Translations under genes and position numbers: made by a program
Notes under the pieces: generated by a model
Told to the model about the DNA's origin: nothing
Database searches by the model: none
What the model saw: the letters and a program-made list of their open reading frames with translations, nothing else
Shown here: positions 8,058 through 57,887 of the stretch, piece after piece
How positions within the stretch are numbered: position 1 is the stretch's first letter
Layout: every line of letters starts with the position of its first letter
NCBI GenBank assembly: GCA_013115125.1
Contig: JABANN010000108.1
Coordinates: 1-64,000, forward strand
Direction: 5' to 3'
From: Perkinsus olseni
Lineage: Eukaryota
DNA: 64,000 nucleotides

Positions 8058-10012
8058 TCACTGCTGGGCGCAGGAGCCGCCGGGAACATCTGTCTCCGCG
8101 GATCCAGCAATCTCAGGGGACATCTTGAACTTCCTCTTGACCTCTTCTGGAAGGGCCGCTGGATGCCCCTCGACCTGCTGAGGGATAAGCCCGTCATGTG
8201 CAGCCGAAAAAGGTCCGTTGTCCTACTGATGGTGATACAGTTGGGCGGTGAGTATTGGCATTGGAAGGGGTTGGTGATGGTACTCCCAAAGATGCTGCCA
8301 GCGTGAGGGCCACATTGGCGACCGCATCTGGAAGGACGCTCATCACGTAGGCCGACGAGGGCTATTGAAAAGAAGGTTGTCACACTACCACTGCCCTCAA
8401 GACAGAGGGGTATTCTAAATGTCATTCATGCATGATGCGGTATAACAAGCCCTACCATCTGCTACTACTACTACCTCCTCCGTTCTCGTCTGTTGCCTCG
8501 CTCGAAGCCAGCACGCCCATCGCTTGTATCAGCAGCTGCAGCCGCTCAGGCGTGGTGGCAAAGTCACGAATCTACCATCACAGGGTTGCGGACAAACCCT
8601 CATCAGCGCTCTCTAATACGTATGCGTGGAAGATGGCGATACCATCCCTACTCAGAGCAGGCCACAGTCGAAGGGGCGAACGAAGCAAAGGCGAAGTCCC
8701 CACAATCCCAGACCACCTGAACTGCCAATTCCATCGCAATGAGTGCTGGCTCAGTGGTGGTGTTGGGCGTTGCCTTCCTGTCTCTCTCGGGCTGACCAGG
8801 GATTCATCCCATCAGGAGGTACACGGGCATACACTCACTTCATTATTAATTCCACTACGTTCATAATCCGGGGACGACACATCCTGGCCTTGTCCGTAGT
8901 ATTGGTTGTCGAAGTAATAATCGTTCTCAGCTTCGCCGTAATAGAAGTCGTCATACTCATCATACTGGGAGCCACGGGGCCTCACCTGTTCAGCTATTCA
9001 ATGTTATCAAGCTCATCGGTGTCTCAGTGACAACAAACGAGGTCCCGGGTTCGAACCCCAGGTATTCCATTATTCGCACAGGGACCAGAGGTGGAAAATC
9101 ATTCTTCGAGGACCCCACAAAGCAGCACAAATCCTCCTCTCCCGCACCACCGCGATGCTACTACCGGGTATCCTATCGGTTTGGGTGGTCGGTATTTCAA
9201 CTCCTGCGGCGAGTGTACGAAGAAGCATTGTCCCTTCCGAGCGAACTCACAGTTGGGGCCGTAGCGACAAAACCTAAAACGATCGGTCTGATAATAACGA
9301 GGGTATCATCAGGATGATCGGAGCCTGACTTAGTCTTCAGGAGTCTCTGGTGACGCTCCACTTCGAAGGTGTCATGGCGAATTCCGAGAGGGATATATCG
9401 GATACCAGACTGCCGCTCTAAACTGGGTCGCCTGACACGATTTGGGGGAGAGATGGTATGATGCAGGGGCTCACCCTCGGGTGGCTCCTAATGATGCATT
9501 TGATGCGTTATCAGCCGCTCCCGTATACCTCCCGTCAACGGATCCTGCAACATGGAATCACTAACGCGAACATGCACACACGCAGTTCGTGAATATCGCG
9601 ACCCCCTAACCTCATTGGACGTGTCTCTTCTACTACTCCCAAGTCACCGAAGGTAATGAGCATTCCGAAGCCTCCCACTTCTTTCGCGATAGTGGGAATA
9701 CTCTCGGGAGACTTTTGGGAGGCTTCGGCAAGAGAAGACGAGGCAGTACGATGAGTTCAGGTGAGGCTATCCTCAAACGAGATCCTATCACGTGCGAGGC
9801 AATCCGAAGAACCGGACCGGATGGGCGTCCATTCTCCGGGTCATCACCTTTATTAGAACTGCTCTTGCCCTCGGTACTCTCCCTCGACGAGGCTGAGCTA
9901 TCTGATGCGACCTAAGGTTAACTCATGCAAGGAAGGTACGCCCCTAGGAAGTCTTGAGGGAGATCCTGTTTACCTTATCCCCTTGCTCAGCCGGTGTTTC
10001 CGAAGATACCAT
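8058..10012 (-). CDS. Hypothetical multi-exon protein ending in ...GGSCAQQ (CaaX-like)
   Basis: Series of open segments separated by GT-AG introns. The last exon reads 'FKMSPEIAGSAETDVPGGSCAQQ*'. No recognisable domain. Confidence 0.4.
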
Positions 10013-10124
10013 ACACGACGTTAGAAAAACTGGTACAATCCTTCTGCAATATTGAAGGAACACAATACCTCCAGACAAAAAGGGTGAAGAAAAACACATT
10101 CATAATGATACAGTTGCAAGATCA

Positions 10125-10811
10125 CTACGGGGTGGGCTTAGTGATGATCGTTATGGCGTGCCACTTCTTGATCTCATCCTTCAACGCTTCATTAACCATC
10201 TGATGCTGTTTGATCCGAGGAAGACCTACGATGAAGGGAATGTGTGGTATCAAGAGCCTGTAAGCAAGCACTAAAGCAACCTGCCCAGCCCTTAAGGGCA
10301 TATAGGATAACTAGCGTTAAAAGCACCGCGTCCAATGTACACAAGGGTATCAGCATAATCTCTTTTTCCCGTGCACTGAAAAGCCTAGGCTACATCCCTA
10401 CGAGTTACAACGCGCCCTATCAACATCCACGATGAATGCAGTAATATCAGAGAGTCTCTATACCCCGGTTAGTACCAACAAATTTAGGTGACTGCACTTC
10501 AACCCTGTAGCTCGATCCACATCCTCCTGATACATCTTCTACCTTGGTCGATGTCGCCCCTAATGTAGCCCGCAGGAGGGACTCGAGCTGAGATGGAGCA
10601 GACAACATACCCTCTGAAACGACGAGCGGACAGGACAACGTGAGTAAGTAGGGTTTGCTAGGCCCTCTCTTTAGAGGGAACACTTCTCAGCTCGATCAGT
10701 GTTTAGTAACTCGTCCGCCTGCGCTCTGGAAGCGAACTTCCGACAACAGAATCGAAGCTCTAATGGTATAACGAGACTATGAACACGGACATAAGGGTGT
10801 AACGTGAGCAT
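10125..10811 (-). CDS. BolA-family protein
   Basis: 'VEDVSGGCGSSYRVEVQSPKFVG|LPRIKQHQMVNEALKDEIKKWHAITI' is the BolA signature, with one ~240-nt intron. Start uncertain. Confidence 0.85.
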
Positions 10812-11104
10812 TTAATTATCCAATAATGAGCGACGGACGATTTCTACTGAGGCGACCAGCGAGTGCGAATTCCCAGCAAAGCAACTTACAGATTTCTCAT
10901 AGGCGTTGGTGGCGGCGGGAGAACAGAAAAACCGTCTCATCATCATTGGAAAACGAAGGAAGGAACTCTGTGGTAAATGCTAACCGAAAAAATGGTAGTG
11001 GGATTCGATCCCGCGACCTTCCGTAACTGGACGTCGGAGTTTCCCTGCACGACCGAAGGGCCCGTCAAAAATACTAAAAGCCACAAGTGACTGAAACATG
11101 TTTA

Positions 11105-11683
11105 TCATCCAGCAACAGTGTCTTCTTCATTATCATCGCTGACTTTATTACGATTGTCGAGCTTGTTGCCACCCCATACGCCACCACCGAACATTCGGGG
11201 CCTCACCCATCCTCGTGCTTCCAAGAGCTCTCTGCCAGCTAGCCAGCCTTTATCTTCTCGAACCTGCCGGTAAGGACATCCCTCCCAGCAGAACTCAAAG
11301 GCTACCGTACAGTGTCCGCTCTGACGTCTCGGGGTTTATGGGCACGATCGTCTTCCGGAGTGAAGCCGAGACGCTCCATCGGCTCTGGTGCCATGAGACC
11401 GTGGTCCATCCTGAACTAGAGCTTGAAGTGAGATCCAGTCGTTGAGTGCCCTCACCGACACTGAAGATACTCCTTAGCGAGAAACCGGCAACTTCGATTG
11501 TCATTTTTGTGTTTACGAAGGCATTTGAGGTACCTAATGCATGTCGCGGGTTGGCTGTCAGGATCGCGTCGGGCTAAGATACTTGTCGTGGATCTGCTTG
11601 CACTGATTGAAATGATCAAGAGGGAAGCTGCCCTTATCTGGGGGTCGCCTTTTAGGCATCAACGGCTGTAGGTGACCCGACAT
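11105..11683 (-). CDS. COX19: Cytochrome c oxidase assembly protein COX19 (twin CX9C)
   Basis: '[44 protein letters not shown]' assembled across short introns. Confidence 0.85.
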
Positions 11684-11849
11684 GATAAAAAAACTTGCGA
11701 CTTCGTAGATAAGACGCGCCGATGATACTTTCCCGAAGATTGCGCTTGCGTACATACCAAAGGCGCGGGTTCGATCCCCGGTAGAGGACCTTGCGATCGA
11801 AAAAACTCAACTCGCACATCTCATCGGAAAGGGTTCATGACAATCATGC

Positions 11850-14691
11850 TCATCCACGGGGAAGGATGATACGTGGAAGCCCAGCAGATCTACCCGGGGA
11901 CTGGACTGGTGGGACCTCGAGGAAGGCTTTGCATACACATGCAACAACACCATGGTACCACAACTTTTCGGAGAGCGTAGAGACTGTGCGCACCTTCTGC
12001 TGCAGACGCTGCAATCTTCTCCTCAAAGGGCTTACACTGGCCGTGCTGTTCTGCCTGAACGTATCTGGGCATCCGATAGGCCGAAAAGTTGGCTGGTGGA
12101 CGTCCCCACCACAAGACGCTGTGGACGCCCTCTTCTCCCTGACCTGACAGTGCCACTGACGGCGTTCAGCTGTGATGATGGCTCACTTCATTCGTTACCG
12201 CACCGCTCCTCAAGATGCGGCGCTTCACACGTGGGGCCTACCATCCTGAGGGTCACCATAAAGCGACCGAAGCCCATGGCACCTCCTCGCCTCTTTGTGC
12301 TGCCATGTTCTCGGGTACCTGCATCCTGCGTTCCGCGCCATCCCGAACATATAAACCCCGAAACCGGGGGGAGCTACATTAGTCCAATTCTCTTCGTCTT
12401 TATGCAAGCGCTCAAGTTGAGCCTCAATTTGTTCCTGTGATATTGGCAGTGAACGCAGTAGCTGCCAGAGGGATAAGCTCAAAATGGCGAGCAGCAAGGA
12501 GGCGTACGGTCGAGTCTGGCTTTAACGCCAAGGCTTCCAACACTGAGCGTGCTCGCCCCTGAGATCGGACTTGCCAAGTTTTCCCAACACGCACCGCCTA
12601 CAAAATTGACTTAACATGCTGGATGCGGCGGCTGTAGAGGATACCATATTGTTGGCACAGTCCTGCCACTGCAGCAGTTCAACATCGACATCCACCTCGT
12701 CGTCGTGTTGGGACTCTTGCAGGCGAGGAAAGACTCCGACGACCTGCGGGAGTGGACAGGTCATATACTACTGGCTGCAAGGTCAGTGGAGGGTGAGGAG
12801 TTTCGTTCCTACTTGGGCTAAACGAGCCACACCTCGTGCGAGGTTACAGACGATGCCCTCTAGATCAGATATCTGCTTTGCCACGCCCTGCAATTCACTA
12901 GCCAATAGCATCGCGGAGTTTGTCGCCGGCGGTTCCGAAAGAGCAGCTGCCCAGTTAGACTCGGCGCTGTGCAGTCTATCGCCTAGATGAAGCTGACCTG
13001 ATTGAATCAACAATAAAGTATAACGTTACCATATTACGCGAAGAAAATCATTGATAGTTAACCGCTCAGCAATACCCACACCCTGTCCTCGTAAAGGATG
13101 GATCATCGAGGCCGAGTACATGACTGTACTGACTAAACCTCCATTAGGGTGGGGTATACAACTCCTCATCACGGTTTAGGGTTTTGTCAAGAGTACTCTT
13201 GTGAACGAAAGGAAATCACTACATAAGTGATCCTGTTCGAGTACAGTCGACAAGCCCCTAAGGCCGGGAGACGCCTGGATGCAGACGCGATGTGACGGAC
13301 GAGTGGTATGAGAGCGTGACAGTTGCACACAAATTTTAGCACGCACGCACAAATTGCGATGTTCGGAGATTCACTGTCCAACACTTTGTCGAAACCGCAT
13401 TAACATCACCTTTAGAGTTCTTGTCTCCCCTCCCTCCACCGACAGGTCGGCCTACTTCACACGTTTCTTCTGAGGACCACTAATGGCTCGTTGATGGGCA
13501 GATCGGAGTGTACCGAGTGTCTCCTCCCTTCCCGTTGGCTCACCGTCAGCTATCTGCTCCTCAGAATCTGCTGTGGAGTTGAAGATCCCGGCAGCAGCTC
13601 ATCCCCAGCCAATACCTACTTCCCTCATCTAATTTATCTTCAACGCCTCCAACCGATCGATGGCCAGTTTCAGCTCGGCTCGATCCTCGATCTGGCGAGG
13701 GGCATCACTAGGATGTGACGTAGGACTCCAGGATCCACCCTGCCTACGTATCCTATTGGGTGAGTGGCCCACTAGATGTCGGCATTCCTCAATCCCTGCG
13801 TGTAGCTGTGCGATATCCCTCTTATTCTGATATAATGAATACTGCCGTATCGAGCCGGTCAGCCTCACCTCCTCAATAGCGTTTGCCAGGTCCTCCATAC
13901 AGAGCTCACTTCTCACCCTGAACTCGCTAAACTCTTCCCTCATCGATGATAGTCTCTCCTGAGATGATCAATCATCATCACCCGCCAGGAAGCCTAGAGG
14001 AAACCTTCTCTCCACTGGCGGTCTCGTCTGCGATATTCCCTCCACTGCCCGCCGCAGCAGGAGTAGGAGCCTGCGTATGAGCGCAAGATGCGGAGGCATT
14101 CACCACCCCAGAAAGGGCCTCATACCAACTGATAGTCGTGAGATCCGAGCATCGCGCCTGCTACTGCCTCCTCAAGAATCGTAAGCCGCTCATGGAGGGC
14201 ATCATCGCTTATTGGGAAGGGCGTGGGTTCGATCCCCCGCGGATGCACTCCCAGGCCGTCATCTATCATTTCTTGATGTCGCGGCGTTAGGTTAGTCGAC
14301 ACATCTCTCTGAACTGCAGTATCAGCATACTCTTCAAAGTGAGCCTGGATGATCTGATGTTCATAAGGTGGTATACTCCCATTCACCTCCTCTAGCCTTT
14401 CCTCAGTACTATCCGCTGCCAGCCTCGGGGCGGCGGCGGTGGCAGTAGCAGGAGGTGCGCCGGGGAGGGACGCCAGCTGAGCCAGATCCTTGTACTATGG
14501 CTGTGGACGGGCTGCTACAAATCCACCTTCTCATCAGCCTCCCCAAGTAACGACCTTCCTTCATCACTCAATATCAGCCCACTCATCAGTTGCTGATGCA
14601 GAGCTAGGATACTCCTAACCAGCGGTATATCCTCACAACAGCAACAGCCGTCAGCCAGGCATGTAGGAGCAGCAGTAACGGCAGCAGCCAT
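11850..14691 (-). CDS. Hypothetical coiled-coil protein, multi-exon; probable host of U3 copy 2
   Basis: Phase-compatible exons '..GREETL|EETCEVGRPVGGGRGDKNSK|GDRLHSAESNW..LASELQGVAKQISDLEG'. Both ends uncertain. Confidence 0.45.
13060..13251 (-). ncRNA. U3: U3 snoRNA (copy 2)
   Basis: 192 nt, differing from copy 1 at only three positions seen by eye. Same boxes and terminal stem. Confidence 0.85.
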
Positions 14692-14789
14692 GACGATGAA
14701 GCACAATAACCTTCGACGACCAGTAGCAAGTACCAAATCTCCCCAGAATCAACCCACGGCAGTGGTGCCTGGCACTACCATTCAGAAGT

Positions 14790-15318: not shown

Positions 15319-17035
15319 TATTCTGTCACCTTGAACTCTTGCTCATTCTTAGATTTCCTCAACGGCGAATTATCCTTTCAAACTACTACTAGTCTACGCA
15401 TTGCGCACCTCGTTCTGATCATCACCATCTTCGGAGCTTCCCTCCTCCGCCGTTGCTGCAGCGGCTGCCGCGGCCACTGCCTTCTCCTTTTCGATGTCCT
15501 GTAGCATCTCGGCAGCCTCCTTACACCTGACAACAACGTCTGTACAAGTAGATTTACACAGGAACTCAAGACAGGGACTACTGCAGAGTACTATCGCGTG
15601 GAAAAGACCAGGATCAACCTAAGATACCCAAATTTGCCGACAGGTTCATTTCCTAACGCAATAAGATCATCATGAACCCACGCCACGGTGTGCTACTGGT
15701 GACGCGACCTAGTAATTATAAAAGTACCATGATTGCGGTTATCTAGACCCAGCTCACCAAGAGGCGTTATCCCGAAGTATCTTTTCCTCCTCTTCAGCAG
15801 TAAACCCATCTTCACCAACGCCGAGCTCTTGGCGTAGTTCCTCGACCGTCTTGGACTTGATGGAAGAGGCCACCTGAGGATAGTAGCCTGTCTTTAAATA
15901 ACGCACGCAGCCAACGCTATGGCAGCTGATAAAAGTATGATAATAGGGACTAGTAGAGCGTAGTAAATATACCCTGAGGAAAGGTGGTGGTTGTATTACA
16001 TCGTACCACATCATCTCAACTTATGATTGTAAACTCAGTTTGTTGATTGCTGAGAAGGTAGTACTCCCCGCCATTACGAAGCGTTTGAGGCAAAGTCTCT
16101 GACTGTATCTTTTTATAATCTTGTACAAGTGTGGGAGGTAGAGTGACCGTTGATATATACAAAGCTGTACAATAGTAGTGTTAATCATCATCCTGAGTAT
16201 ACCCCCCAACCCTGTTATATACAAAGCTGTACAATAGTAGTGTTAATCATCATCCTGAGTATACCCCCCAACCCTGTTATATACAAAGCTGTGCAATAGT
16301 AGTGTNNNNNNNNNNNNNNNNNNNNNNNNNNNNNNNNNNNNNNNNNNNNNNNNNNNNNNNNNNNNNNNNNNNNNNNNNNNNNNNNNNNNNNNNNNNNNNN
16401 NNNNCAATAGTAGTGTTAATCATCATCCTGAGTATACCCCCCAACCCTGTTATATACAAAGCTGTGCAATAGTAGTGCTATTCCCTCATCGCTAATGATG
16501 TTATTACCGATGCACAGCACAGCTCCAACAGGGGTTTTATGTCCATGAAGTTAGCAGCTAGCATGACGTCGAATAACTCCTTCTGAAGAACAGCAAGAAG
16601 AAGGGCGTAGATGACTAACACCGGTATTGACGGCGGTACCTCAGGCAGTTCCAGGAATTTATCGTCCCATTCGGAAACGCCGTTATCCCTCAGACGACCA
16701 CCCATCTTCAATGGTTTGTTGATTACACCTGAGTAATGAGAGGTGAGTGAAGAGTTACGATTGGAGTGGTATTACTAACTGGATTATTAACATGATATTC
16801 ACACCATTGTACGACCTTGTTGAGTATCTTCGAGCTTACATTAGGCAAGGGTATTTCCTGAATACCATCTTTCTCCCAGCTTTACTGTCATTACTACTAC
16901 CTCATCATTGATGCTACCACTAGCATCATCGACCATATTCTTGACTAAGATACTGAAGCAGGCCGCCTTCAGTGGGATAGACACCACTATCCCGTCCGAG
17001 GTACGGACCTTAACTGCAGCAGCATCTTCGGACAT
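15319..17035 (-). CDS. SKP1: Skp1 (SCF ubiquitin ligase subunit) with acidic C-terminal extension
   Basis: 'VKVRTSDG..ILVKNMVDD..IPLPNV.SKILNKV..SEWDDKFL..LFDVMLAANFMDIKPLLELCCA..VASSIKSKTVEELRQELGV..FTAEEEEKILRDNASWCKE'. 3' end uncertain. Confidence 0.9.
16154..16477. repeat. 62-bp tandem repeat (minisatellite) in a Skp1 intron, interrupted by an assembly gap
   Basis: Unit TATATACAAAGCTGT(A/G)CAATAGTAGTGTTAATCATCATCCTGAGTATACCCCCCAACCCTGT starts at 16154, 16216 and 16278 and resumes after the N run. Confidence 0.95.
16306..16404. other. Assembly gap (99 N)
   Basis: Run of N. Confidence 1.
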
Positions 17036-25654: not shown

Positions 25655-26189
25655 CAATAGTAGTGACATGCTCACTGTTATGTATCCTATTATCATTCCA
25701 CCAGCAGCAGCAGTATTCGCAAACACAATTCTCGTATTGATAATTTCGGTAACAGATGGTATCGTCTGTTCTGGGCTGCTACCTTTCAGCCTCCTACCGA
25801 TCATCATCATCGCTGGACCAGCGATTCCCCTTCACTGCTGCTGCCGCTACTACTGCTGTATCATGCATCTCCCTGATACTGTCCTAGAGTAAAAGAAAAT
25901 TAGTATATTTTCTCAGCGGAGCGAAGCAGCAACTGCCGCTGTTCACAATTGATATTTTACGAGTAGTGCGGTGTATGGGGAAGCACATCAACCGAAGCGT
26001 TGCGTTCAGTCGGAAGTTGAAGAATGCAGCCTCCGGGGATCGAACCTCCGGCTTTCTATCGTCATCAGCGCTCGCCATTTCGATCGATTTCTCTGAACAC
26101 ATCGCCCTGACCTGCCCCACGAGAATGGTAGTGTAACCAACGTGGTGTGTAGGAGTATCTCTTGTTGTCGTTTTCCCTTCCCGTCATTG

Positions 26190-29143: not shown

Positions 29144-30625
29144 CTATTGCTGGGCACAATCAGGATCGGTGGTGACACGGGGCTCTTCAGTGAAGGTAGC
29201 ATCACCACCATCCCAAGGCTGGTAAGTATCTTCCTTATCGACGACGTCATTATCGACGATATCCTTGGCGTAGAGGTAATAGCACCCTCCACTGGTGTAT
29301 GCGGCTCTAGCCAAACCCTCACGTTTCTGCTCATCAACGGTAGTACGGAGGCAGTCGAGATTGAGCTCATCAGTGTAATGACTATTACTGCCGCCAAGCA
29401 GTGACTCAAAGCCATTGCTCTTGCCGACCGCCGGGGACGGGAAGATGGTGGGACTGCTACCAACACTTGTTGGTATCGAATTACTCGAGGAACCCGACCG
29501 CTGTATAATTTCTGATGAGCCGCCTCCGTCGGGTCGCCCTCCAATTAAGCGACGAGAGGCGGCGTAGTAAGGATAGGTATCATCAGTATTGCCGTTGTTG
29601 TTGTGGTTGAAGTTATGCCCTAGGAGAGCAGCACCATTACCACCAGAAGCATCGACCGTAATGAAGGACCTTCGCGGAACCTGTTCGTAGTGCTTCACGC
29701 GAGCACTCGAGCCCAGGTGGCGAAGTAGACCACCAGCCGCGGGGTTACCCTGCAGAGCCGAGTTACTGGCGTTAACGGCGGCAACTGCCGACGAAGAATG
29801 CTCAAAACTACAGAAACCAAAACAGCGGCTCTTGCCAGTACTGCGGCACCTCTTGACCTCACAGTCGATAACTGCGCCAAATTGCCGCGACATGAGGGCT
29901 TTCAAATCTGCGGTGTTGATGGCAGGCGACAACCCACCCACGAACACAGTGTTCTCCGGGGGAGGGTTCACGTAGTTATTGATATTATTGACCATGTGGA
30001 TGGGGGAGTCGCCAGGCACCTCCACCCTGCCACCGCCACCATCAGCAGCACTGCCATCAGTGACGACTGTGCTGCAGTGGCTGGAGGCTCTAAAACGACC
30101 ATCAGTGATGTGACCATCGGGTTGACCTTCACCAGGGGAATCGTCAAAACTGAAGTGCTTCACTTGAGTAGTCGCCCAAGTGACGCAGCTAGTTTTACTC
30201 GATCTGGTGGTGTTCCTCGGCCACTGGTAACCGTTGAAGATGGTCATAAACCTATCAGCCACCGGCCTCGATGTGAGGTTGATGAAGGCGTAACCGCGAT
30301 TGCACTTGTTGTAGTCGTCCCAAGGCAGATAGACACTATGGTACTCTCGGTCGTTGCCGTACTCGAACCCATGTTCGTTCATGACTTGGACCAGCATCTC
30401 ATAGGTGTAACGATTGGGTATGTTGCGCCACATGACCGAGGTTAGCTCATCAGGAGGGCACCCAGGGGGCATGGACTTTTCTATCTGCTTTCGCAGGAGG
30501 GAGGCCTCTTCTTTGACGTGGTGGAGTGGAGGGGGAGGGGGAGGAGGAGGAGGAGAGGAAGGGAGTTCCAACAGACCATCGGGAGACATTGTATTAATGG
30601 TAGTAGATCGAACTGAGTTCACCAC
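29144..30625 (-). CDS. Mei2-like RNA-binding protein (Mei2-type RRM followed by a canonical RRM)
   Basis: 'TSVMWRNIPNRYT..VYLPWDDYNKCNRGYAFIN' (Mei2 RRM3 signature), then 'TVFVGGL..KSRCFGFCSF'. Continuous 493-aa ORF. Confidence 0.85.
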   Translation of the reverse strand: MVNSVRSTTINTMSPDGLLELPSSPPPPPPPPPLHHVKEEASLLRKQIEKSMPPGCPPDELTSVMWRNIPNRYTYEMLVQVMNEHGFEYGNDREYHSVYLPWDDYNKCNRGYAFINLTSRPVADRFMTIFNGYQWPRNTTRSSKTSCVTWATTQVKHFSFDDSPGEGQPDGHITDGRFRASSHCSTVVTDGSAADGGGGRVEVPGDSPIHMVNNINNYVNPPPENTVFVGGLSPAINTADLKALMSRQFGAVIDCEVKRCRSTGKSRCFGFCSFEHSSSAVAAVNASNSALQGNPAAGGLLRHLGSSARVKHYEQVPRRSFITVDASGGNGAALLGHNFNHNNNGNTDDTYPYYAASRRLIGGRPDGGGSSEIIQRSGSSSNSIPTSVGSSPTIFPSPAVGKSNGFESLLGGSNSHYTDELNLDCLRTTVDEQKREGLARAAYTSGGCYYLYAKDIVDNDVVDKEDTYQPWDGGDATFTEEPRVTTDPDCAQQ

Positions 30626-30827
30626 GCTGAATCACCGCCCAAAGATTCCTTCGGGACGATAAGAATGCGCTGGGGCGAGCGATATCAAGGTATATCATAA
30701 AAATGCCGCATGTGGGTATCGAACCCGGGCCCTTCTCCGCCACACCTCGAACTGACAACGCAACGTCGGTGTGGGTAATTGAAACGTACCAAGTGGTATA
30801 AGGTGGCATCTTAGGTTGATGACGGTG

Positions 30828-32437: not shown

Positions 32438-32512
<75 letters not shown>

Positions 32513-35500: not shown

Positions 35501-36763
35501 CCAGGGATGGTGGCCAGAGAGAAGCTGGTGTCCTTGAGAACTGTCAAGCCCTCATTCCTCAACTTCTCGACGGCCGTCCTCGCCCCTTCCTCCAAGACCG
35601 CCGTGTTGTGAGCCGACGTGGCTGCCGCTGACGTGATGGCCAAGACGCAGGGCTCTCCCCGGGCTGCCATCGCCGTCCAGAGGGCGCGGGGGAACCACCA
35701 GCCCTCGGACGACGAGGAGCAGCAGGCGGCTGCCGATGCCTCCAGAAGGGCCTCCGCTATTTGACGGCCCCGTGAGGACTCCTCGACCTTGGCCAGCAAA
35801 GGCTCCTCCCACCTCACCCACGGGCTGTCGGGGAAAGATATCCAATTGTCAGGATTGGTGACACGTATCCGACGGAGCGAAGCACAGACAGTTTCCACCA
35901 CCCAGTCATCATTTTCGTATTTTTCCATCAGTTTTGCGTGCACGGCTCGAGAAGAAAAGTGCAAGGACTCCAGGAACTCGCTCGGCGCCTGCTGCGCCTC
36001 CACTTCTTTGACATCAAGCTTGGACGGTATGCCTCCCCAGTACTGGAGCAACGCGATGGCCCGACTGACGGGAGGGCAGCCCCAGGCGAGGCAGGCACGA
36101 AGCCTCTCGTCATGATAGGGGTAATACACCGACTCCAGAGCTTCGTCTACTGTATCTTTCTCGAAGTTGGCCAGGAGGAACCTGAAATCCCATACCACAT
36201 TTCCGCCAACTCCTCCTCGGACCCCCCTGTATGCTACTACTCAGTCATCTCACATGATGCTTTAACAAAGGCCTCCACACAGTCAGGACATAGAGTGACT
36301 TTCAGATGGCGATCGATGAGCTCCATTACTCTCCGGAACGGCCTCTGACCAACCAAAGACGCTCCTACGGGTAGTCGGTAGGGCGGTAGTCGCTCGATGA
36401 GGGCGCATCACCTCCAACTGGCTGGACGGGTCCATCTCCACCAACAACAGCCGCAGGAAAATCGACAAGGCGCTGGTCAGGTCCGAGGCTTTAAATCGGG
36501 CCCGGCACAGCTGCAAGGGTATCTTTACTCCCCGTGATTAACCAGAGTGAGCCTACCCAATGGCCGCCGTAGTCCACTGATTCCCTACAGGCCGCCTCGA
36601 GCGTATTGAGAGCAGCCACGGCTCCATCTGAGGTTATTCGGAGTTCCTCCATCTCCTCCTCCTACTCCGACGAGAACAAGCGTACGACCAAACAAGCTTG
36701 AGTGGCGACTGTGCGATGACGATGATGATGAACGCAACCACGCGGAGGAGTGTTGGAGGACAT
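30828..36763 (-). CDS. SEN1: Sen1/senataxin-like UPF1-family SF1 helicase
   Basis: '[13 protein letters not shown]', 'ICAPSNAAVDE', 'IIDEACQAIEPSALIPL', 'VGDPQQLPATV', 'SLFERL', 'QYRM', 'TVDAYQGQEKDII', 'RRLNVSLTRAK'. Long multi-exon N-terminal region; start uncertain. Confidence 0.85.
32439..32510. repeat. (GTT)24 microsatellite encoding poly-Asn in the helicase
   Basis: 72 nt of perfect trinucleotide repeat immediately before the helicase core. Confidence 0.95.
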
Positions 36764-36809
36764 CTTCTACATGACTACACCAACGTGATGGTAGCGGATA
36801 ATAAGAGGC

Positions 36810-38007
36810 TTAGTAGCCGAAAGTGGTGTACACAAAACTGCCAAAGCCGATGGAATCTAAGGTCGAAGCACGCAGTCGGCAGAATAGTGGCGACGACGTG
36901 ATGATACTCACCTTCTGAAACTCCTCGGCCTGGCAGAGAAGCTGTCTTGGGCCGAGGCCGACCGAAGCCACATCTAAATGGAATGGAGAATTGCATCGAC
37001 CAGGGATCGAACCCGGGACCTACTTCCGTGCATTCTGTCCGATGCGACCGTGCTCTGCATACGCTCCAGGACCCGGGCCAGTGTCGTCGCCTCGCCTGTG
37101 AGATACAGTCGAAGCATACCCGCTTTGAAAGGCCTCACCGAAGGCGAGAACGGTAAGAGGTTCCGAAGGTCCATCGAGGGCCGCTCCCTTGAGGGGAAGG
37201 ACCGGTCAATCGGTAGTGGCCAGGGCCAGGCATTGACGCCGCGTCCGACGCTGAAAAAATACTCCACAGAGACTCGAACCAGGGACGTCTCTAGACTAAC
37301 ACGACGTCTTAACCACTAGACGATGTGGATGCACATAGTCCTGGCCCGATACTACTCTCCCCGGCAGGCCCATGCCTGGACTTCATGCTGAACATCTTCC
37401 CTGTCTTCCCCAAGGAGGACGGTGGATTGTAATGCCCCGGCCCCGGCTCGGAATACCTCCGCGTCGCTCCGCCACAGCTCGACCTGACCATGGCCATAAA
37501 CAGCCGCCACAGCTAGACACCCACCTTCCACTTCCAAAGCCGACTTTGGCACTACTGCCCACCTCCCGGGGATTGTACGACCCCGGCCCTGGACCATCAT
37601 CAGACCGTGTCCGGGTATCCTGGCGGGAATATTCGACCGGAAGTTGCTCCCCCTCCTCCCCTTACCCCATCTCGCCTGCCTGTACCGAAGCGGAAGGAGG
37701 CCCCTCTGCCCAGGTCATTGAGCCGTGTTGTTCTATACTGCCCTACAACGCAGGCACAGATGATTAATAAGAGCCCTCATCGACCTACCTGGGCCGGGGA
37801 TCATGTTCCCTCTAGAGACCGACTCGCCGCTCCTCCGACCACCGATGGTCCACTTGGGGGAGGTACGGATCTACGGAGGGGTGTCAGGTGAGGGGGCCGG
37901 GCCAATGCTGCTACCTGGGACATTCTGGTCAGCTGTGTGACCTGCCCGAGCCCCGACTGTCGGAGGGAGGGAGAGGCGCTGTTCGGCCGGTCGGCGTACA
38001 TTGACAT
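36810..38007 (-). CDS. SHIPPO/ODF3-like PGP-repeat (flagellar) protein
   Basis: Repeated 'PGPGSYNP', 'PGPGHYNP', 'PGPGHYRL' and 'PGPGAY' across exons. Confidence 0.75.
37262..37329 (-). pseudogene. tRNA-like element filling an intron (acceptor stem, D arm, A and B boxes; anticodon and T stems broken)
   Basis: TCCACATCGTCTAGTGGTTAAGAC...CCTGGTTCGAGTCTCTGTGGAG followed by T6. Confidence 0.55.
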
Positions 38008-38142
38008 GAAACAGTAAGGCTTACAAGAACTAGAAAGAATAGAACCCGGGTCGTCAGATAGCGCGACCACAACTCTAACCGTTGTACCATTCCAACTCAA
38101 CCCTACTCCACTAAAGTCTCCTGAAACAAAAAGTATTGCAAC

Positions 38143-38875
38143 TCATTCTCCTTTCTCCTTCAACTGCTGCTTCACGGCCTCCAACGCCTACAAACATTCC
38201 CATCAGCATCAGCAGCCCTCCCCCAAGCACCCGAACCTGTTGGCCGTTCTTCAGCGTGTTGAACGCCTCATCGGGCAATTTAACGTCGAAAGCCTCTTCG
38301 ATCTGCAGCAAGCATTCCACCTCCTCCAACTCATCAAAGCCGAGGGACTCAAAACTGAGCGTCAACTAACAGCGAGGGCATCATCATCATCATCATCACG
38401 CAGGACAACACCACAACCTACCAACTCTTCCGGAGTTTTCGACCCGAACGTGGCGATATTTTCATCCAACTTTTTCAGGGCCTCTTCGGCAACGCCTTTG
38501 GCCGCCTCTCCTCCCTTCTCAGCCTGCTGCTCCACAGCAACCTACACAGACCAGGAATGTGCGCTCAATTTAACAATAATCGATCATTCGGGCGAGCGCG
38601 TTATGCCCTCTACTACCTCCTCTCGCCTCATTTGTAGATACCCCTTGATGGCCGCTGCTGTCCGCGTAGCTAATTCCGCAGGATTTTGCCTAACGTTCAC
38701 CATCAGCGTTCCGTAACTCACCCGCTTCAACCTAAGATTCCCCTCACCCTTCCGATGAAAATAGCGCACGCCCCGGAGTTGATCCAATGCGCCATGATGA
38801 CATCCTTCCGGCCATTCCACCGAGGACCGATGCAGCGGCGCGTGAAATAACAAGTTGGCTTCGGACGGGGAGCAT
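38143..38875 (-). CDS. Mitochondrial acyl carrier protein-like, lacking the phosphopantetheine serine
   Basis: Arg/Ser-rich presequence 'MLPVRSQLVISRAAAS..RALFSS'. 'SFESLGFDELEEVECLLQIEEAFDVKLPDEAFNTLK' aligns with ACP 'DLGLDSLDxVExxxxxEEEFxxxIPD'. Confidence 0.75.
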
Positions 38876-39058
38876 GGAGAGAAGCGGAAAGGCAACTGTC
38901 AGCGTAAACGGCACCAGAGTGACTAAGAATAAACACAACAAGGGCTATCCTAACGATGATAATGATTACTAGTACCACACTTCGGGTTCTACGCGACTAC
39001 GGAGGGAACAATGTACAGAATTATTACTTCGACTAAATTACGACAGACGGGTGGCCGC

Positions 39059-40167
39059 TCAATAATCCCATCCTTCCTCTCGAGCGTACATATCGACCAT
39101 CGGAGGCTCGCTATTCCAATCGATCTGTCTAGAGTAGGTGTTATCAATAGCATCATCAGCGCTGCTGTGCTCCTCCACCTGCCCCTCGTCCCTGGCCACA
39201 TCCCGACAGTTGTTATACCAAGAAAAGTACAACTTCCGATCAACTGTACTCTTCCCGTCCGCCCTTAAGCTCATCTCCAACTCCTGCAACTTCTCGAAGA
39301 ATCCACAGTTGGGCCGGATGTTGCGACAGTGCCTCACATGCGTGAGGGCGTGGTACAAGGACTGGCCTCTCCGCTTGACCAGATACGAAAGCAAGGTGGA
39401 CGCAGACCGGGACACTCCGCTGCGGCAATGAATCAAAACACAACCCGAGGAGGAGGCAAGCGAGGAGGGGGAAGAAGACGGTGACGTATCTAAGGTCGAA
39501 CCCTGCACTGGACAGAAAACACCGCTTGCCCGCCTCCTACCCTGCTCCATGTAAGGCCGCAATGTCTTGTCAATGTGCTCATGCGCCTCGTCCCAAAACC
39601 AATCTATGGGCTCACAGGACATATCTTCGACATCAACCCTGACAGGACAACAACCAATACCACCAGAACGAACTGCTTCGTTCCGACGGCGGTACGGACT
39701 CCGAGCGTGACGATGATAGATTCGCCTCAGCCCGACCTACCGGTAATAATCAACCCCATCTGCTGTGAAGAAGATATCTTCCGGATACTCGGTTATGGTA
39801 CAACAACAAACAACACTTGTAATATTATACTTACGAAGCAGCTCTCTGTTACGCGCCACAATGTGACCACCCAAAAAGATACGCGGGAAAATCTGATACA
39901 AAAACTGACAAAACGCACCCCAACCACCAGCACTGCCCACCTCATGAGCCGTCTCTTGAGGGTCCAATGGCGGCCGAATGCGCAGCCGAGCCAACGAATC
40001 TGCCATCCACCACTGCCACTCAAATCACGTCAACAATGCCCATCACTACGTCGCTCAGCCCTCCGCCGTTTCCGCCTGTTGCCGCTCTCCTTCAGATCAG
40101 CCCTCGGGGTATCCAACTCCGTCGTGTGGACCATCGACGATGAGGCAACTTCCATCGTGGCCAACAT
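39059..40167 (-). CDS. Dual-specificity protein phosphatase
   Basis: 'QIFPRIFLGG..LLRKYNITSVVCC', active site 'VLIHCRSGVSRSAS', 'IRPNCGFFEKLQELE'. Confidence 0.9.
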
Positions 40168-40273
40168 CTGAGGGGAGCGAGTCGTGAATCATGAAAGGGC
40201 AGTTGCCGTTGATCAATGAACAGTTTACATCATCCCCATCACTCGGGACGTGGATAAATAATCACCAGTAGGT

Positions 40274-41629
40274 TTATCTGAGCAACTTGTGAGTCACCGC
40301 CTTCGACCTCCTCTCCACAAGATACTTCCCGCGACCCTCCCCCCTGTGGCCCCCTATTACGTTGCTGCGTCGAAGGCGATGGTCCTCAGCACTGGACGAT
40401 TCCGCCGAGGATGTCGACATGTCAGGCGAGGGGCTACTGCTGCTGATGTTTGCCGAGTCCAAACCGCCATCATCGTCGTCACTTTCTTCGAGTAAATTAA
40501 GCCGCTCCAAGATGGTGCGATGGGAATATATCCGACCTGATACATAGAACCCCGGATCGATCCCGGCACCCGGCACTTTTCCCAACCACCAAAGTCACTA
40601 CCCTTTTCCTTCTTTTTCCTATGCTGATTCATCGTACTCATCTGCAGCCTCGCCAACGCATCAATTCCCGACGGCTGAGAACACAACCAACTAGCCACCA
40701 CCTCCTGACGGAATAGCAAGAGCGCAAGATACTACCTGTGAGGCCCCTAGCTGAGCTACACCTCCGACCACCGTTTGCATTGCGTCTGGCGGAAGGTTAA
40801 CTGACAGAACGACGAGTCTTCGTCCCATGAAGCCTCGTCCCCTCACCTTCATCTTCGGCATCACTGCCGTCCTCGTCGCTCTCTTCGACCAAATTAAACC
40901 TTTCCAGTATCGATCGGCCCCGCATGAGGGCTCCTATGATGGACCATACGATCACATAACCCCTGCACAGCACTACCCCTCCTTCCCGCTGCCGCTTGTT
41001 GACGCATCAGAGTGGCCTCCAACGGCGCCATGTAGTCTAACGAGCTCGGTTGGGGCTGCAAACAGAACAAAAGATTCCCTCGAGGCCAACCACCTCCAAC
41101 TCACCTGGGTCGGGGAGCTCTCAGCTGACGCATCGCCAATGAATGGCTTAAATGCGACCAATGGGACCGCGGGGGCCACCGTGGATGGTGGGATGGACGA
41201 CGACGAGGAGGACAGACCTGACGAAAGTTTCTCTGGTGGTCGGATGGCATAGGGACGCTCACCGTCCACCATCATCTGGTAGGGGGAGTCCCCCGAGGCC
41301 AGCGCTACCGGAGGCTCGCTGTGGATGCTCTGAAGAGGAGCGTCGTAGTAGAACGGAGCGGTTAGGCGTACCTCATTCTCCGATGGTAAGATACAACCCT
41401 TGGCTGGAGTGGTTACAGAGGTGGTCGCAGGTTCGATCCCCGGCGTCGGCATCATCTCAGCAGCTAGCACTTCTGCTGGACAGGAGGAGAGCATAACCCC
41501 ACTGCCACTGCGGCTCCTCCTTTTGCCCCTCCCTCGGCCGGCGAAGTATTCATCCGCAGTCTGTGCCACTCGATTGGGGGAGGTGTCATCGACCGCAACT
41601 TCGCCATGGCAGGAATCAACAGATTCCAT
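40274..41629 (-). CDS. Hypothetical low-complexity protein with a duplicated motif
   Basis: Exons join in phase (e.g. GAA G|gtgagg..cag|TT AAC). The motif R[ST]ILER[LF]NL[LV]EESD occurs twice. Confidence 0.5.
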
Positions 41630-42746
41630 TCGACTGAAGAGAACAACAGAGACGATGGTGGTGACACGCCCCGGGCCCGAACTGACTGAGGGACTACAGC
41701 AAGCTGGAGATTATGAGAACGATCCGAGGCAGTCTAATGAGGTCCTCTCCACCACTGATGGCCACTGTGATGGTTGGTAAGATGACATCAGATGATGCAA
41801 TACAGGAGTACTCAATCTACCTCAAAAAATAGAAAGAAATCCGATTTACGAAATATAGTTTACATTTACCAATCATCGTACTAACCACTTCCGCTGCTGC
41901 CATTCCGCAGCCGTAACGCTCAACGCCGGCATAGATTTCACGACAGGCGGAGGGATGGGGCACTAGAGGTTTCACTCCGGGTGTTGTTGAAGACACACGC
42001 AGATGGTTATCTACGGTGGTGATCTCTAATACCCACCACCCTCCATAAAGATTATAATGGCGATTCTGCTGATACCCAATAAAGATGCTCACAATGGACG
42101 ATAAATTGATACGTGGCCCTTCATCAATCAGGTTTAGTGAAGCGATGCGTCAGTAATAGATGATGGTAGCCCTGACGACGAATGATGATCACAATCGGAT
42201 CATCATTGTGAAGATCCGATCGTCATGATAGTCAGGACCTATATAATGATGATCTTGGAGCATTGATAACGACGAATGATAGCACGTCATGTGCGGTCAT
42301 CGTGCGCCATCGGATCTGTATAGATCCGATAATACACGACAAATTTAAAGTCATCCGCTAAAAAATATTTCCGGCAATTTTTTTGTAAATATAATCACGA
42401 GTATTTCCCACGGCGTCGTCGAGTTGACGATGACACCACCCACCTCCAAGCCTGCCCTCTCCCTTCGCTAGTCCGGAGTGTTTGATACCGTAAATCCCCC
42501 TCATCGTAGGATGATAGCAGATGGTGATTATCAAACTCCCCCACAGCAGCGGCTCCCCCTTCGGCCACGTCACGGTCGATCTCTGCACCACGAGACAGCG
42601 GAAGGTTGCGATGGTAGTAATAACTGCTGCCATTACTCTACAATTTAACCAACACAACAGCAAGACGGTGATGGCAAGTGGTAGTAGCAACTCTAGAAGC
42701 TGTTATGATGATGATGACGGTGGTGGTCGAGTCCGCGGACGGTCAT

Positions 42747-42975
42747 TTACTTCTGGTTAGAGTTGGGACCCCTCTTAGGGCCACCAGTCACCTTGGCGGA
42801 GAAGCGACGGTTGTACTGCATACGCTTGCGAGCGCGACCTGACAGCGATGGTGATACAATTAACGGATGTTATGGTATTACCAGTGATGGCCTTCTTCTT
42901 CTCCTGCTTGGGGACCTTGGGGGTCTGATTCTTAACCTTACCGGCACGAGCTAACGATCCGTGAACTTTTCCCAT
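42747..42975 (-). CDS. RPS30: 40S ribosomal protein S30 (eS30), one intron
   Basis: [44 protein letters not shown]...GPNSNQK*. Confidence 0.97.
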
Positions 42976-43402
42976 GGGGTAACAACAAAGGAGCCAGCAA
43001 CTACCTAGGGTCAACCTAAGATACCATCCCTCGACCAAATCCTGTACGTGGATCCACGCCATCACGCTTCGACGGTTCGATAATATTCAACAGCGACAAC
43101 TCATAGCCTTACTAGATCACTACTGATGGGACTCAAAAACGCATCACGGACGAGTGGACCACCACCCGACCGGTAGAAGGACCTTTCCGCCGCCGGAGCA
43201 CCTCGCTAAGGATAAATCGATCACAATGGCGAGCGAGATTTACGCCAACTCCGACATGATTAGCAGCCGACCATGCGGTGGAGCCATGAAGACGAAGCGA
43301 CGCAAAACTAGCGGGTTGGGGCAGTGGGAAAGGAATTTGCGGGGCTACGTGTTTGGATCGTAACCTATTGCGTATCTTCCCATAGTCGACCTTGGATATT
43401 CT

Positions 43403-55238: not shown

Positions 55239-55309
55239 GCATCATTGGTCTAGTGGTAGAATACAACGTTGCCATCGTTGTGACCCGAGTTCGATTCTCG
55301 GATGATGCA
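55239..55309 (+). tRNA. tRNA-Gly (GCC)
   Basis: Full cloverleaf: GCATCAT/ATGATGC acceptor, anticodon arm CAACG-TTGCCAT-CGTTG, T arm CCGAG-TTCGATT-CTCGG, followed by TTTT. Confidence 0.97.
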
Positions 55310-55348
55310 GCTTTTCTTCCTCACTATTTAGCATCGCCACATCAGTCG

Positions 55349-57040
55349 ATGAATACTGCCGAATACCCCCTATCGCTGTCAGGCATTCTTTCTCTCTTTC
55401 TGACACCCATGTTCGGAGGCGCTCCTGAAAAGTCGCATAACACGAAGTCCTCCTCCCAGCTTGTTGAAGTGTAGGAGGAATCCTCGCCCGTGAGAAGGAT
55501 GCTGCCGATTATTTTCTTCTTCAGCGTCGGCATCGATATGGTGGAAAGAAGCTACGCTCGCCGAGTTGGTGGCTTCATCTTCCTCACTTATCTGCCTCCA
55601 TTCATAAACCTCACCTTCATGGTCGTGGCGGTTGTATTGTCGATCCCGTTGACCAACTTGTAAGCGAAAGGGCGTCGGTTCGGACCAGGGAAGCGGTACT
55701 TTAGGTCTGATTTCCTGACGCTTGTGAGCCCCTTTCTGCCACTATTGGCCTACTACGGATTCGTCCTCGTCTCACCCAAGATGATGCTCACCTACGGAGC
55801 TCTGGTATGGATCATGATCGGCCTTCGTGCGCTGGCTTTGGCACAGGTAAAGATGAGATCGATCATCAGGGCATGCGCTACTCTCCTCCCACAGATGTTT
55901 CACTATGTATCTCTGGTCCAGCGACTCGTAGCATCCTGCACAATCGACGGCGCTGGGAAGGTGATCGATGCCGTGAGCCATCCCGTGTAGGTTGGGGAAG
56001 CCCGGCAGCGAATAATGCGGTAGATTGTACGTATAGTTGATCACTAGTGGTAGTGCAAAAATCTCTCCTTTCATTCCGATTGATAGAAAAACAGTTTGGC
56101 GTGCTTCGACGGCTCAAAATACAGGAAACGCGGGAGGAAGAGTATTCAAATGGTGGCCTATTATGATGCTGTTGACAATGGCGTGTGCTCCGCCAGTGAC
56201 TTTGGTTGTTATTGTTGTTGTTGAGGGATGGTTTTGGTCGAAGGTACGACTGTGGCAAGATATCATCCAGCGTGTGGGAGGTCGCAGCCGATCATCATGC
56301 ACACAATAGTGGAAATATTTATGCTATTTATCTCACATGCTTCTTCATGGAGGTGGCAGTCTATTTGGTAAGGGGTTGTAGGACGGCTGCCTGTCCTGGG
56401 AGAGAGAAGAATCACCCAAGTTCAAATCCCACGGATGTCATTTTCAATCGATTTACGGGCAGCAGTTGATAAGTTGCTCGAGTACACTTTCCCATCATCC
56501 CCGTGGCTAGAACTGATAGATGATATCCGCATTCCGATTCCTGTTCTTAATGGAACCGGATATCTCCGTACGCCCTCGCAAAGTTACTATGACGTGGGAC
56601 AGCCGCCTCGCTGGCTCCTTCACAGTTGTACATCAAACATGGTGTTCAAGTTCCGTAATAGAAATCCGGTTTTTTACTGCCGTTGATGAGGCGTACTTGC
56701 TATATCCCTTCGCGAGAGTCTCCTCGACATCCGCCCATCTTCTGCTGTTATTGATATCGGCAGTGGTGTGAGCATAGGGTGGCTAAGCGGTCGAGCCGTC
56801 ACAACCCGGAAGGCTTTAGTGTCCTTCTCAGGTCCTCGGTGTATTGGCCGTGAGGTTTTCCATGTTGACGAGGAGAGGCAAAGTTGTGAAGAAATCAGCG
56901 GAAGTCGATGCATCGGGGGTAGTAGTGGTGTGGGTGCAAGAACTAATGTCGTTTTACCGAAGACCGGTGCTGTTTCTACTAATGGGAACGGTTCCGGTGT
57001 ATCGGAGAAGGAGAGTTTTCCCGTTCAAGATTCCGGGTGA
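55349..57040 (+). CDS. Multi-pass membrane protein, tandem paralog C (more divergent)
   Basis: 'FLPLLAYYGFV..LRALALAQ|..SCTI..IDAVSHP', with introns placed as in A and B. Confidence 0.55.
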
Positions 57041-57887
57041 TATCAAAAAGCCCTGATTATTCTCATCACACATTGGGAAAATCGTCTCCGGCGTCGTGCG
57101 GGACCGACAGTCTTGCGGAGGGTGGGGGAGTGTTGGTTGGTTCTCAGATTCCCTATGACCGTCAGTTAGTGAGGATGGACACATGCGCAACTCAGTGCTC
57201 AGAGGCTGATCTGGTGCAGGTCGGAATACCAGTAGCTGAGATCAGACGTGGTGACAAGGTCGCAGATAGCCGCCCGGTATAGGGCAGTTTTTTAATGCGG
57301 GAGATCGTCGGATCTATCCCCGGGTACAGCGTCGTTTATTAAGACTCTATACATGAGCATTTTATTAGTCGAATTCATGAGTCAGTAACTCAACAGCTGT
57401 CGTTCAGACCAGTCGTTGTGGGCTGTGGTGTTGAGAATCATCAATTTAAGGAAAAGCAAGATTACTAAAGAGAGCAAGAGAGACGAGTAAAGATACCATT
57501 GCAGTTCAGGTGATGGAGCTTGGATTTGAACGAGGGACCTCTCGGTTGCTAGGTGGAAGCATTGTAGCAGTTGTCCGCTTTACCATTTGCGAGATTTCAC
57601 TCCTTGCCATGAGGTCTGTGCCGACACTGCGAGGGCATGCCTTCATTCAACTACGGTAGGAGGGCGGAGCGAAGCGAACATCTCCGCATTTAGTCGGAAA
57701 TATTTGCGCTCAGAAAATTCAGTCGAACGTCGAATGTGACGGCGAAGATCCAAAAGCGGCGGGAGGAGTTCGTAAAGGAAAAGTTTCCGTATTTTCGTGG
57801 CGCGGTGACGGAGGAGATGCCGAAGCGGGGCAGGAAGTAATGGATGGGGCATTTTGTGGCGCGTGAAGCTACTACGCGGCCTTCGAT

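Follow-up and report, generated by a model that had tools for sequence, protein, structure and literature searches.

tRNA 3'-half look-alikes in a Perkinsus nuclear region

The DNA analyzed here (the window) is a stretch of 64,000 nucleotides (nt) from Perkinsus olseni, positions 1 to 64,000 of contig JABANN010000108.1; the genus Perkinsus comprises parasites of oysters and clams. Scattered among the genes of the window are 11 short orphan elements that resemble the 3' half of a transfer RNA (tRNA) gene and retain a T arm with its B box, and we ask here what these elements are. The window is a compact, intron-dense, and trans-spliced region of the Perkinsus nuclear genome, in which the genes form long runs on a single strand. 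It was assigned to this genome because of its RNA contigs, a spliced-leader end, and protein identities. RNA contigs of two public runs map to the window, and the introns are of the GT..AG type with lengths of 45 to 73 nt among those listed. These contigs are from libraries of the poly(A) type; reads of two host-labeled runs carry no information on expression, as 35 partial reads of X21 fell on low-complexity sequence and none of X23 aligned. The reading frame of a helicase (30831-32726, minus strand) is 93 to 95% identical to P. olseni proteins and 72% identical to P. chesapeaki, while other exons in the window match a P. olseni protein at 100%; a metagenome scan with the helicase protein returned one distant match (L001, 37% identity). 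At 26151, the RNA contigs of two runs start with the extra letters CTTGGCTCA, which are the 3' end of the Perkinsus spliced leader, a sequence that appears in the primer listings of PMC3101222. This position is the trans-splice acceptor of an eRF3/HBS1-like GTPase gene that packs at least 12 introns of 45 to 64 nt into 2 kb. A single genuine tRNA gene, tRNA-Gly(GCC) at 55239-55309 on the plus strand (found by ARAGORN; Rfam tRNA score of 58.5 bits), is present in the window and served as the reference.

Each element is a unit of 30 nt made up of the variable loop, the T arm with the B box, the acceptor strand, and the discriminator, with a T-rich trailer after it. A preliminary description of this DNA had listed 11 tRNA 3'-end look-alikes, and the family proved real. 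Ten of the sites, near 9045, 11000, 11765, 14225, 26035, 30705-45, 37005, 37275, 40555, and 41430, are members, while the likeness near 57525 is marginal: at 57511-57540 (minus strand), with a TTCAAAT loop and G52 replaced, it scores 12.9 bits (E = 0.3) in a covariance model of the unit and stays outside the member set. An additional member, at 4958-4987 (minus strand), lies beyond the range first noted.

The enrichment becomes clear only when more than the core of the T loop is considered. The core motif GGWTCGA is only mildly enriched in the window, with 35 strand-specific matches compared with 20.5 ± 4.7 in 100 dinucleotide shuffles, one of which reached 35; this count is inflated because near-palindromic sites are counted on both strands, and about 24 of the 35 matches are due to chance. 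T-arm-like hairpins number 14 against 5.9 ± 2.4 in shuffles, of which 2 of 300 were as high. The full B box GGTTCGANNCC has nine matches at eight loci, where 0.68 ± 0.81 are expected and none of 200 shuffles reached nine, whereas the reversed B-box control CCNNAGCTTGG was observed 0 times against 0.62 expected. Likewise, GGTTCGATCC was found five times, compared with 0.09 to 0.27 expected under Markov models of orders 2 to 5. The 14-mer GGTTCGATCCCCGG occurs exactly at three places (11768 on the plus, 26033 on the minus, and 41430 on the plus strand). With up to three mismatches, it has 18 matches against 6.5 ± 2.4, a number reached by 0 of 100 shuffles, and the matches with 0, 1, 2, and 3 mismatches number 3, 2, 3, and 10, respectively. 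The probability that the whole 11-member set arose by chance is negligible.

The likeness to tRNA extends beyond the box. Among the 35 GGWTCGA matches, GCA stands at +19..21 in six (P = 1.4e-5; offset counted after G52) and the variable-loop GGTC at -7..-4 in four (P = 1e-5). The six bases past the discriminator of the 11 copies are T in 37 of 66 cases against a background of 24% (P = 2.5e-8), and in none of the 11 does this tail begin with CCA. In the copies at 4958, 36992, and 37259 (all minus strand), the supposed "oligo-T terminator" is the pyrimidine tract of a 3' splice site, so that the T run also belongs to a splicing signal in no fewer than three intronic copies. The acceptor strands vary between copies and mostly end in ..GC-A, as expected of tRNAs with G as first base and A as discriminator. 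In alignment A1, G53, T55, C56, G57, A58, and C61 are kept in all 11 elements, which is partly a matter of ascertainment.

To score the flanks apart from the box, we built a leave-one-out weight matrix from flank columns only, with the 11 orphans and the true tRNA-Gly as members, and applied it to 60 RGWTCGA matches. The 12 members scored +2.3 to +16.8, whereas the remaining 48 matches all scored +0.5 or less. Moreover, when the matrix was built from the 11 orphans alone, the true tRNA-Gly scored +11.5 and ranked third of 60. In the covariance model of the 30-nt unit, the 12 seeds score 22.7 to 37.6 bits, which is by construction, and the next match scores 15.0 bits. Overall, the analysis supports the view that the elements are tRNA-derived or tRNA-mimicking 3' halves with intact B boxes, present far above chance.

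Genomic contexts of the individual elements

The contexts were read from public Perkinsus protein models aligned back to the window and from the RNA contigs; because the public models are automatic and often fuse neighboring genes, exon calls rest on conservation. Many copies had been described as lying in introns or just upstream of start codons. Four are indeed intronic (4958, 9040, 40546, and 37262-37329) and a fifth (36992) is in an intron or an exon, but four others lie in spacers between tandem genes on the same strand (10990, 11760, 26025, and 30704) and two in coding exons (14218 and 41422), both antisense and with a box that encodes GIEP. Relative to their host or neighboring genes, five copies are sense and six antisense. 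Since none of the 15 RNA-supported introns listed carries a B-box-like motif, the B box is not a general intron signal.

Among the intronic copies, the one at 4958-4987 (minus strand; 31.0 bits in the covariance model, flank score +7.3) shares 21 of 30 bases with the 3' part of the true tRNA-Gly, as counted by eye in alignment A1. It is sense, and the 51-nt intron that it largely occupies (4952-5002, GTAGCT..TTTTCAG) belongs to an AAA-ATPase gene; P. olseni protein P0121 omits exactly these 51 nt. The copy at 9040-9069 (plus strand; 31.3 bits, flank +6.3), with AGGTC, the stem CCGGG/CCCAG, and an end in ..TTCCA, is antisense within a 176-nt intron (8986-9161) of a minus-strand gene; the intron is about three times the usual length, and the exons flanking the element match P0121 at 100%. 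At 40546-40575 (plus strand; 29.7 bits, flank +3.8), a copy with GGATCGATCC and with ..ACCCGGCA followed by CTTTT lies antisense in a 62-nt intron (40537-40598); the P. chesapeaki model is likewise interrupted by an intron at this point.

The most complete copy, at 37262-37329 (minus strand), amounts to an entire, degenerate tRNA of about 68 nt, for which the unit at 37259-37288 scores 22.7 bits. Its acceptor reads TCCACA/TGTGGA, its D arm (GTCT-AGTGGTTA-AGAC) is perfect, its anticodon region contains GTC, and its T stem is broken. The copy resembles the tRNA-Gly 5' half with z = 4.5 and received no call from ARAGORN or Rfam. This copy is sense and occupies the 3' end of an intron of about 105 nt (37251-37355, with a predicted 5' border), where its T6 plus CAG forms the splice acceptor ahead of the exon SDAASMPGPGHY.

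The best formed look-alike, at 36992-37021 (minus strand; 37.6 bits), combines AGGTC, a 5/5 T stem, and TCGATGCA with a 7/7 complement, GCATCGG, 24 nt upstream. It lies either in a 50-nt intron (36974-37023, GTAGGT..TTTAG) according to the P. olseni model or in frame within an exon of a SHIPPO-repeat gene (..VGPGFDPW..). On the opposite strand, antisense to this element, the Rfam Plastid-ycf2 5'UTR model aligns with 36991-37045 (plus) at 26.1 bits, where the gathering score is 65.7; its E-value is 0.004 in a 601-nt search and 0.43 across the window. We do not regard the element as a member of this family, as the match probably arises from the model's own likeness to an antisense tRNA acceptor and T arm.

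Among the spacer copies, the one at 10990-11019 (minus strand; 25.5 bits), whose flank score of +2.3 makes it the weakest member, has an A54-type loop (GGATCGAATCC) and ends in ..ACTACCA followed by T6; it stands just downstream of a CHCH (cox19-like) coding block, and a P. olseni gene model continues across it, making a doubtful last exon of the element. The copy at 11760-11789 (plus strand; 33.6 bits, flank +8.7), which contains the exact 14-mer, is antisense in the 341 nt (11639-11979) that separate two minus-strand coding blocks, which a single fused P. olseni model connects. Another exact 14-mer is found in the copy at 26025-26054 (minus strand; 32.3 bits). Two plus-strand genes are 163 nt apart here, and the copy in this spacer precedes the spliced-leader acceptor at 26151 by about 100 nt; the RNA contigs stop at 25987 and resume at 26151, leaving the element outside them. 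Likewise, the copy at 30704-30733 (minus strand; 36.1 bits), whose flank score of +16.8 is the best, lies outside the contigs, which end at 30614 and 30805. This copy, with AGGGC, GGTTCGATACC, and ..ATGCGGCA followed by T5, is sense in a spacer of about 190 nt between the 3' end of the helicase gene and the 5' end of an RRM gene.

In the two exonic copies (14218-14247 and 41422-41451), the B box is translated from its reverse complement, in the minus frame, as the peptide G-I-E-P. The two proteins are unrelated, and relatives of both retain the peptide; the idea that the two exons are paralogues was rejected (BLASTP E = 0.28). The first copy (14218-14247, plus strand; 35.8 bits, flank +9.2) faces the minus frame ..VHPRGIEPTPFPISDDAL.. 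(..RGIEPTPF..); two P. olseni relatives, 53 to 55% identical, retain GIEP..FPISDDA. The second (41422-41451, plus strand; 31.8 bits, flank +7.5), with the exact 14-mer, GGTC, and an end in ..GGCA, faces the minus frame ..MMPTPGIEPATTS.. (..PGIEPAT..), where PGIEPA forms an island of identity with P. chesapeaki within a poorly conserved region. The stretch beside it (KGCILPSENEVR) is weakly like the tRNA-Gly 5' half (z = 3.2) and falls into a gap in P. chesapeaki.

Origin of the elements and competing explanations

None of the 11 copies is a working tRNA, and the tRNA fold has been lost. ARAGORN called a single gene in the window, the true tRNA-Gly, and left the orphans uncalled; with introns allowed, it called two, the second of which is spurious and has a 767-nt intron. 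Across the window, Rfam found one tRNA at its gathering score, and relaxing the threshold to E ≤ 10 added no other; a 601-nt search around 36992 and 37259 with this relaxed threshold found none. The T-stem cells are paired at 71.7%, compared with 72.5% in 500 shuffles (335 of 500 as high), and for the outer three T-stem pairs, pairing is missing from 7, 6, and 4 of the 12 rows.

The copies do not form a young family of tRNA-derived short interspersed elements (SINEs) either, because their likeness ends at the T arm and target-site duplications are missing. Pairwise blastn-short gave matches of 10 to 18 nt at the T arm only and no common body outside the tRNA-like part, and a self-BLAST of the window found no dispersed repeats besides two U3 genes and simple repeats. 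Direct repeats of seven bases flank 2 of the 11 copies compared with 2.7 at random sites, and repeats of eight bases flank one compared with 0.87 expected, although old copies could have lost their duplications. An A box with a D arm is found in 1 of 11 copies (37262-37329), and no copy is followed by a SINE body. The suggestion of an "eroded tRNA-SINE" thus holds in the loose sense of old tRNA-derived copies but not in that of a repeat with a shared body, duplications, and an A box. Alignment of the upstream sequences yielded z > 3 in 3 of 66 pairs, two of which involve the true tRNA-Gly; an upstream family body suggested by 11760 and 40546 (both plus, z = 3.8) was set aside as too weak.

The earlier remark that most copies are without a 5' half is borne out. 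Nine of the 11 have no recognizable 5' half and start near the variable loop, the D arm is present only in the copy at 37259 (minus strand), and the copy at 41422 (plus strand) has the weak 5'-half likeness given above. The motif TAGTGGT, observed 21 times compared with 5.5 expected, was considered as a marker of orphan 5' halves and rejected, as its matches are low-complexity sequence of the GTAGTAGTGGT type; D arms accompany two of the 21, in the true tRNA and in 37262-37329.

With moderate confidence, we favor the reading that the elements descend by old copying events from the 3' parts of tRNA genes, that most of them are truncated at the 5' end, and that they were kept or are detected through the B box. 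As we infer the mode, age, and neutrality of the copying, the source would have been tRNA gene DNA or unprocessed pre-tRNA rather than mature tRNA, since CCA is encoded in none of the copies and they retain the T-rich trailer. The copies may then have landed wherever they were tolerated, in short introns, in same-strand spacers of about 160 to 340 nt, and, in two cases, in frame in exons, and divergence would have left the B box of 11 to 14 nt as the most recognizable block. If the conserved PGIEPA reflects the element, at least one insertion would be older than the split of P. olseni and P. chesapeaki. The graded completeness of the set (one whole degenerate tRNA, one weak 5'-half likeness, and nine copies without a recognizable 5' half) speaks for this reading, and the 5:6 ratio of sense to antisense together with the mixed contexts is as expected from scattered insertions. 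Most copies probably have no RNA-level role, and, judged by their sequence, the intact B boxes could be chemically competent, putative landing sites for TFIIIC.

Several observations weigh against this reading. The hallmarks of insertion were not found, with seven-base repeats no more frequent than at random sites and no A tails, and the likeness between copies is confined to 10 to 18 nt of the T arm. Three exact and two one-mismatch copies of GGTTCGATCCCCGG stand beside diverged flanks, in which, counted by eye in alignment A1, the T-stem 5' strands differ from the complementary CCG in 8 of 15 cells and the acceptor strands are about 30% off the consensus. The mismatch spectrum of 3/2/3/10 lacks the steep rise of neutral decay and hints at constraint on the box. 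In addition, the location of two copies in conserved coding sequence (GIEP) is odd for junk, the 51-nt and 62-nt introns are too short for a 30-nt insert into an older intron, and the dominance of 3' halves is left unexplained, with no orphan D arms found among the 21 TAGTGGT matches checked.

These observations would fit a second explanation, which we regard as possible but doubtful: by analogy with the yeast extra-TFIIIC (ETC) and COC sites, the elements might be working TFIIIC sites, selected as boundaries or as roadblocks to polymerase II between tightly packed trans-spliced genes, with the tRNA-like flanks as leftovers. GG(T/A)TCGANNC(C/T) is kept in 11 of 11 elements while T-stem pairing is at the level of shuffles, which would point to preservation at the DNA level rather than the RNA level; however, the elements were found through the B box, so that its conservation is partly ascertainment. 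The orphan boxes are nearer to the consensus than the box of the true tRNA-Gly (AGTTCGATTCT), and the three exact and two near-exact 14-mers reach 3' of the box next to diverged flanks. Yeast ETC sites are B boxes with a 3' extension conserved across species (PMC3395662). Four copies occupy short same-strand spacers outside mature mRNAs, but 7 of the 11 are not intergenic. The PGIEPA island shared with P. chesapeaki speaks for constraint on the site, but in exons such conservation is confounded with constraint on the protein. The density of about one site per 6 kb would also far exceed the eight yeast loci cited in PMC3395662. A broader form of this proposal, in which thousands of tRNA-derived extended B boxes of the GGTTCGATCCCCGG type, about one per 6 kb, would be candidate TFIIIC sites that partition or roadblock trans-spliced arrays, with DNA-level constraint fixing GIEP across species, strikes us as unlikely.

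It is improbable that the box resembles a T arm by coincidence, being in fact the motif of another DNA-binding factor or a by-product of mutation or base composition. The presence of the box in unrelated exons, where it encodes GIEP, and the restriction of the common sequence to a short core would suit this possibility. However, the features found at fixed offsets in the flanks are tRNA features, the flank-only matrix picks out the true tRNA, T-rich trailers follow the units, one copy is a whole degenerate tRNA, and higher-order Markov models do not predict the excess.

An action at the RNA level, in which minihelices of acceptor stem and T arm would be cut by RNase P or RNase Z to punctuate transcripts or release small RNAs, appears very unlikely. 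The copy at 36992 (minus strand) can close a 7/7 acceptor stem on a 5/5 T arm, the copy at 30704 (minus strand) has a 7/7 complement in which three pairs are G-U, and five copies are sense to local genes. Against this, the T stem is not kept and shows no covariation, and near 5' partners with at least 6/7 pairs exist for 3 of 11 copies, which is about chance (approximately 0.27 per element by a hand estimate). Moreover, six copies are antisense, splicing removes the intronic ones, three of the supposed terminators are the polypyrimidine tracts of splice sites, and the Rfam tRNA model gives no match. The preliminary proposal of transcript punctuation by tRNA-like folds is accordingly disfavored.

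In trypanosomatids, genes for small nuclear RNAs (snRNAs) and 7SL RNA have companion tRNA or tRNA-like A/B-box promoter elements upstream, and these resemble the Perkinsus copies in being degenerate tRNA-like boxes outside tRNAs in a protist with spliced-leader trans-splicing. By this analogy, the copies could be companion promoters of nearby polymerase III small-RNA genes, for which two U3 small nucleolar RNA (snoRNA) genes in the window and the T runs after several copies might be cited, but we give the idea almost no credence, as no element lies within about 100 to 150 nt upstream of either U3 gene (the nearest are 14218, about 970 nt from U3 13060-13250, and 4958, about 2.5 kb from U3 2212-2402), Rfam found no other small-RNA gene beside any element, and thus, unlike in trypanosomatids, no small-RNA gene stands at about 100 nt from any of them.

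Known counterparts and the surrounding genes

Among the known systems closest to the Perkinsus elements are the ETC sites of Saccharomyces cerevisiae and the COC sites of Schizosaccharomyces pombe, which likewise comprise orphan B boxes with a 3'-extended consensus, some of them in short intergenic regions (PMC3395662). However, the flanks of the Perkinsus copies still resemble a tRNA 3' half (variable loop, discriminator, and trailer), and most copies lie in introns or exons; their density, as given above, also differs from that of the eight yeast loci. Compared with tRNA pseudogenes and fragments, the elements are similarly degenerate, with a recognizable B box, no working cloverleaf, and a gene-type 3' end (no CCA, T-rich trailer), but they are biased toward 3' halves, outnumber the true tRNA genes of the window 11:1, and include two copies that are exonized and conserved. 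Like tRNA-derived SINEs such as the AfuSINE2 families of Aspergillus fumigatus (PMC5063351), they are dispersed, tRNA-related, and promoter-bearing for polymerase III in noncoding DNA. In contrast to such SINEs, they have no shared body, tail, or target-site duplications, their tRNA-like part is the 3' end of a unit rather than its head, and ten of the 11 lack an A box.

In a tRNA survey covering P. marinus and P. olseni (PMC9550989), the canonical tRNAs number 50, and the portion of it at hand does not mention such fragments; the motif strings searched for in its supplement text, in looking for a real tRNA with the T arm CCGGGTTCGATCCCCGG, were absent. Searches of the Perkinsus literature on tRNA, the spliced leader, intergenic regions, SINEs, repeats, and transposable elements returned no description of such elements. 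Orphan B boxes, tRNA fragments, and tRNA-derived repeats are already known, and a dense instance in a perkinsid would be new.

If the copies are relics only, they are ordinary, unreported tRNA-derived debris and matter chiefly for the annotation of Perkinsus genomes, whose public gene models continue across some copies and join adjacent genes into one. If the B boxes are used, they would be a dense, sequence-defined set of extra-TFIIIC sites in a trans-splicing alveolate with very short spacers. We know of no description of how neighboring genes are insulated in the Perkinsus lineage. In the two exonic copies, the synonymous sites would separate constraint at the DNA level from constraint on the protein.

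The genes of the window form same-strand runs at about 3-17 kb (minus), 18-28 kb (plus), 29-43 kb (minus), and from about 44 kb (plus). No tRNA-like element lies at the points where the coding strand changes, near 17-18 kb, 28.3 kb, and 43-44 kb. The fusion of neighbors in public Perkinsus protein models is seen at 29147-43086, where a P. olseni model joins the helicase, the RRM, and a SHIPPO-repeat protein and a P. chesapeaki model joins ribosomal protein S30, a phosphatase, the SHIPPO protein, and the helicase; the frame of one model over 37010-37300 also conflicts with the SHIPPO repeats. Because of these fusions and this disagreement, the annotation of 29147-43086 is unreliable.

The two U3 snoRNA genes identified by Rfam (2212-2402 and 13060-13250, both on the minus strand) are of the "ACEA" type, which is non-fungal and non-plant. 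Over 203 nt (2202-2404 and 13050-13252, both minus), the two copies share 97.5% identity, and no common flanking U3 promoter is visible, as the likeness ends within about 10 nt of the gene borders. A fused P. olseni gene model places the second copy (13050-13252) within one of its "introns." Between 16151 and 16483, a tandem repeat of about 62 nt, with copies 88 to 100% alike, is found on both sides of an assembly gap of 99 N (16306-16404). Finally, the ribosomal protein S30 gene (42676-43342) has by far the highest expression among the RNA-covered genes listed: the contigs of run X1 cover it to a depth of about 96,000, compared with tens to hundreds for its neighbors.

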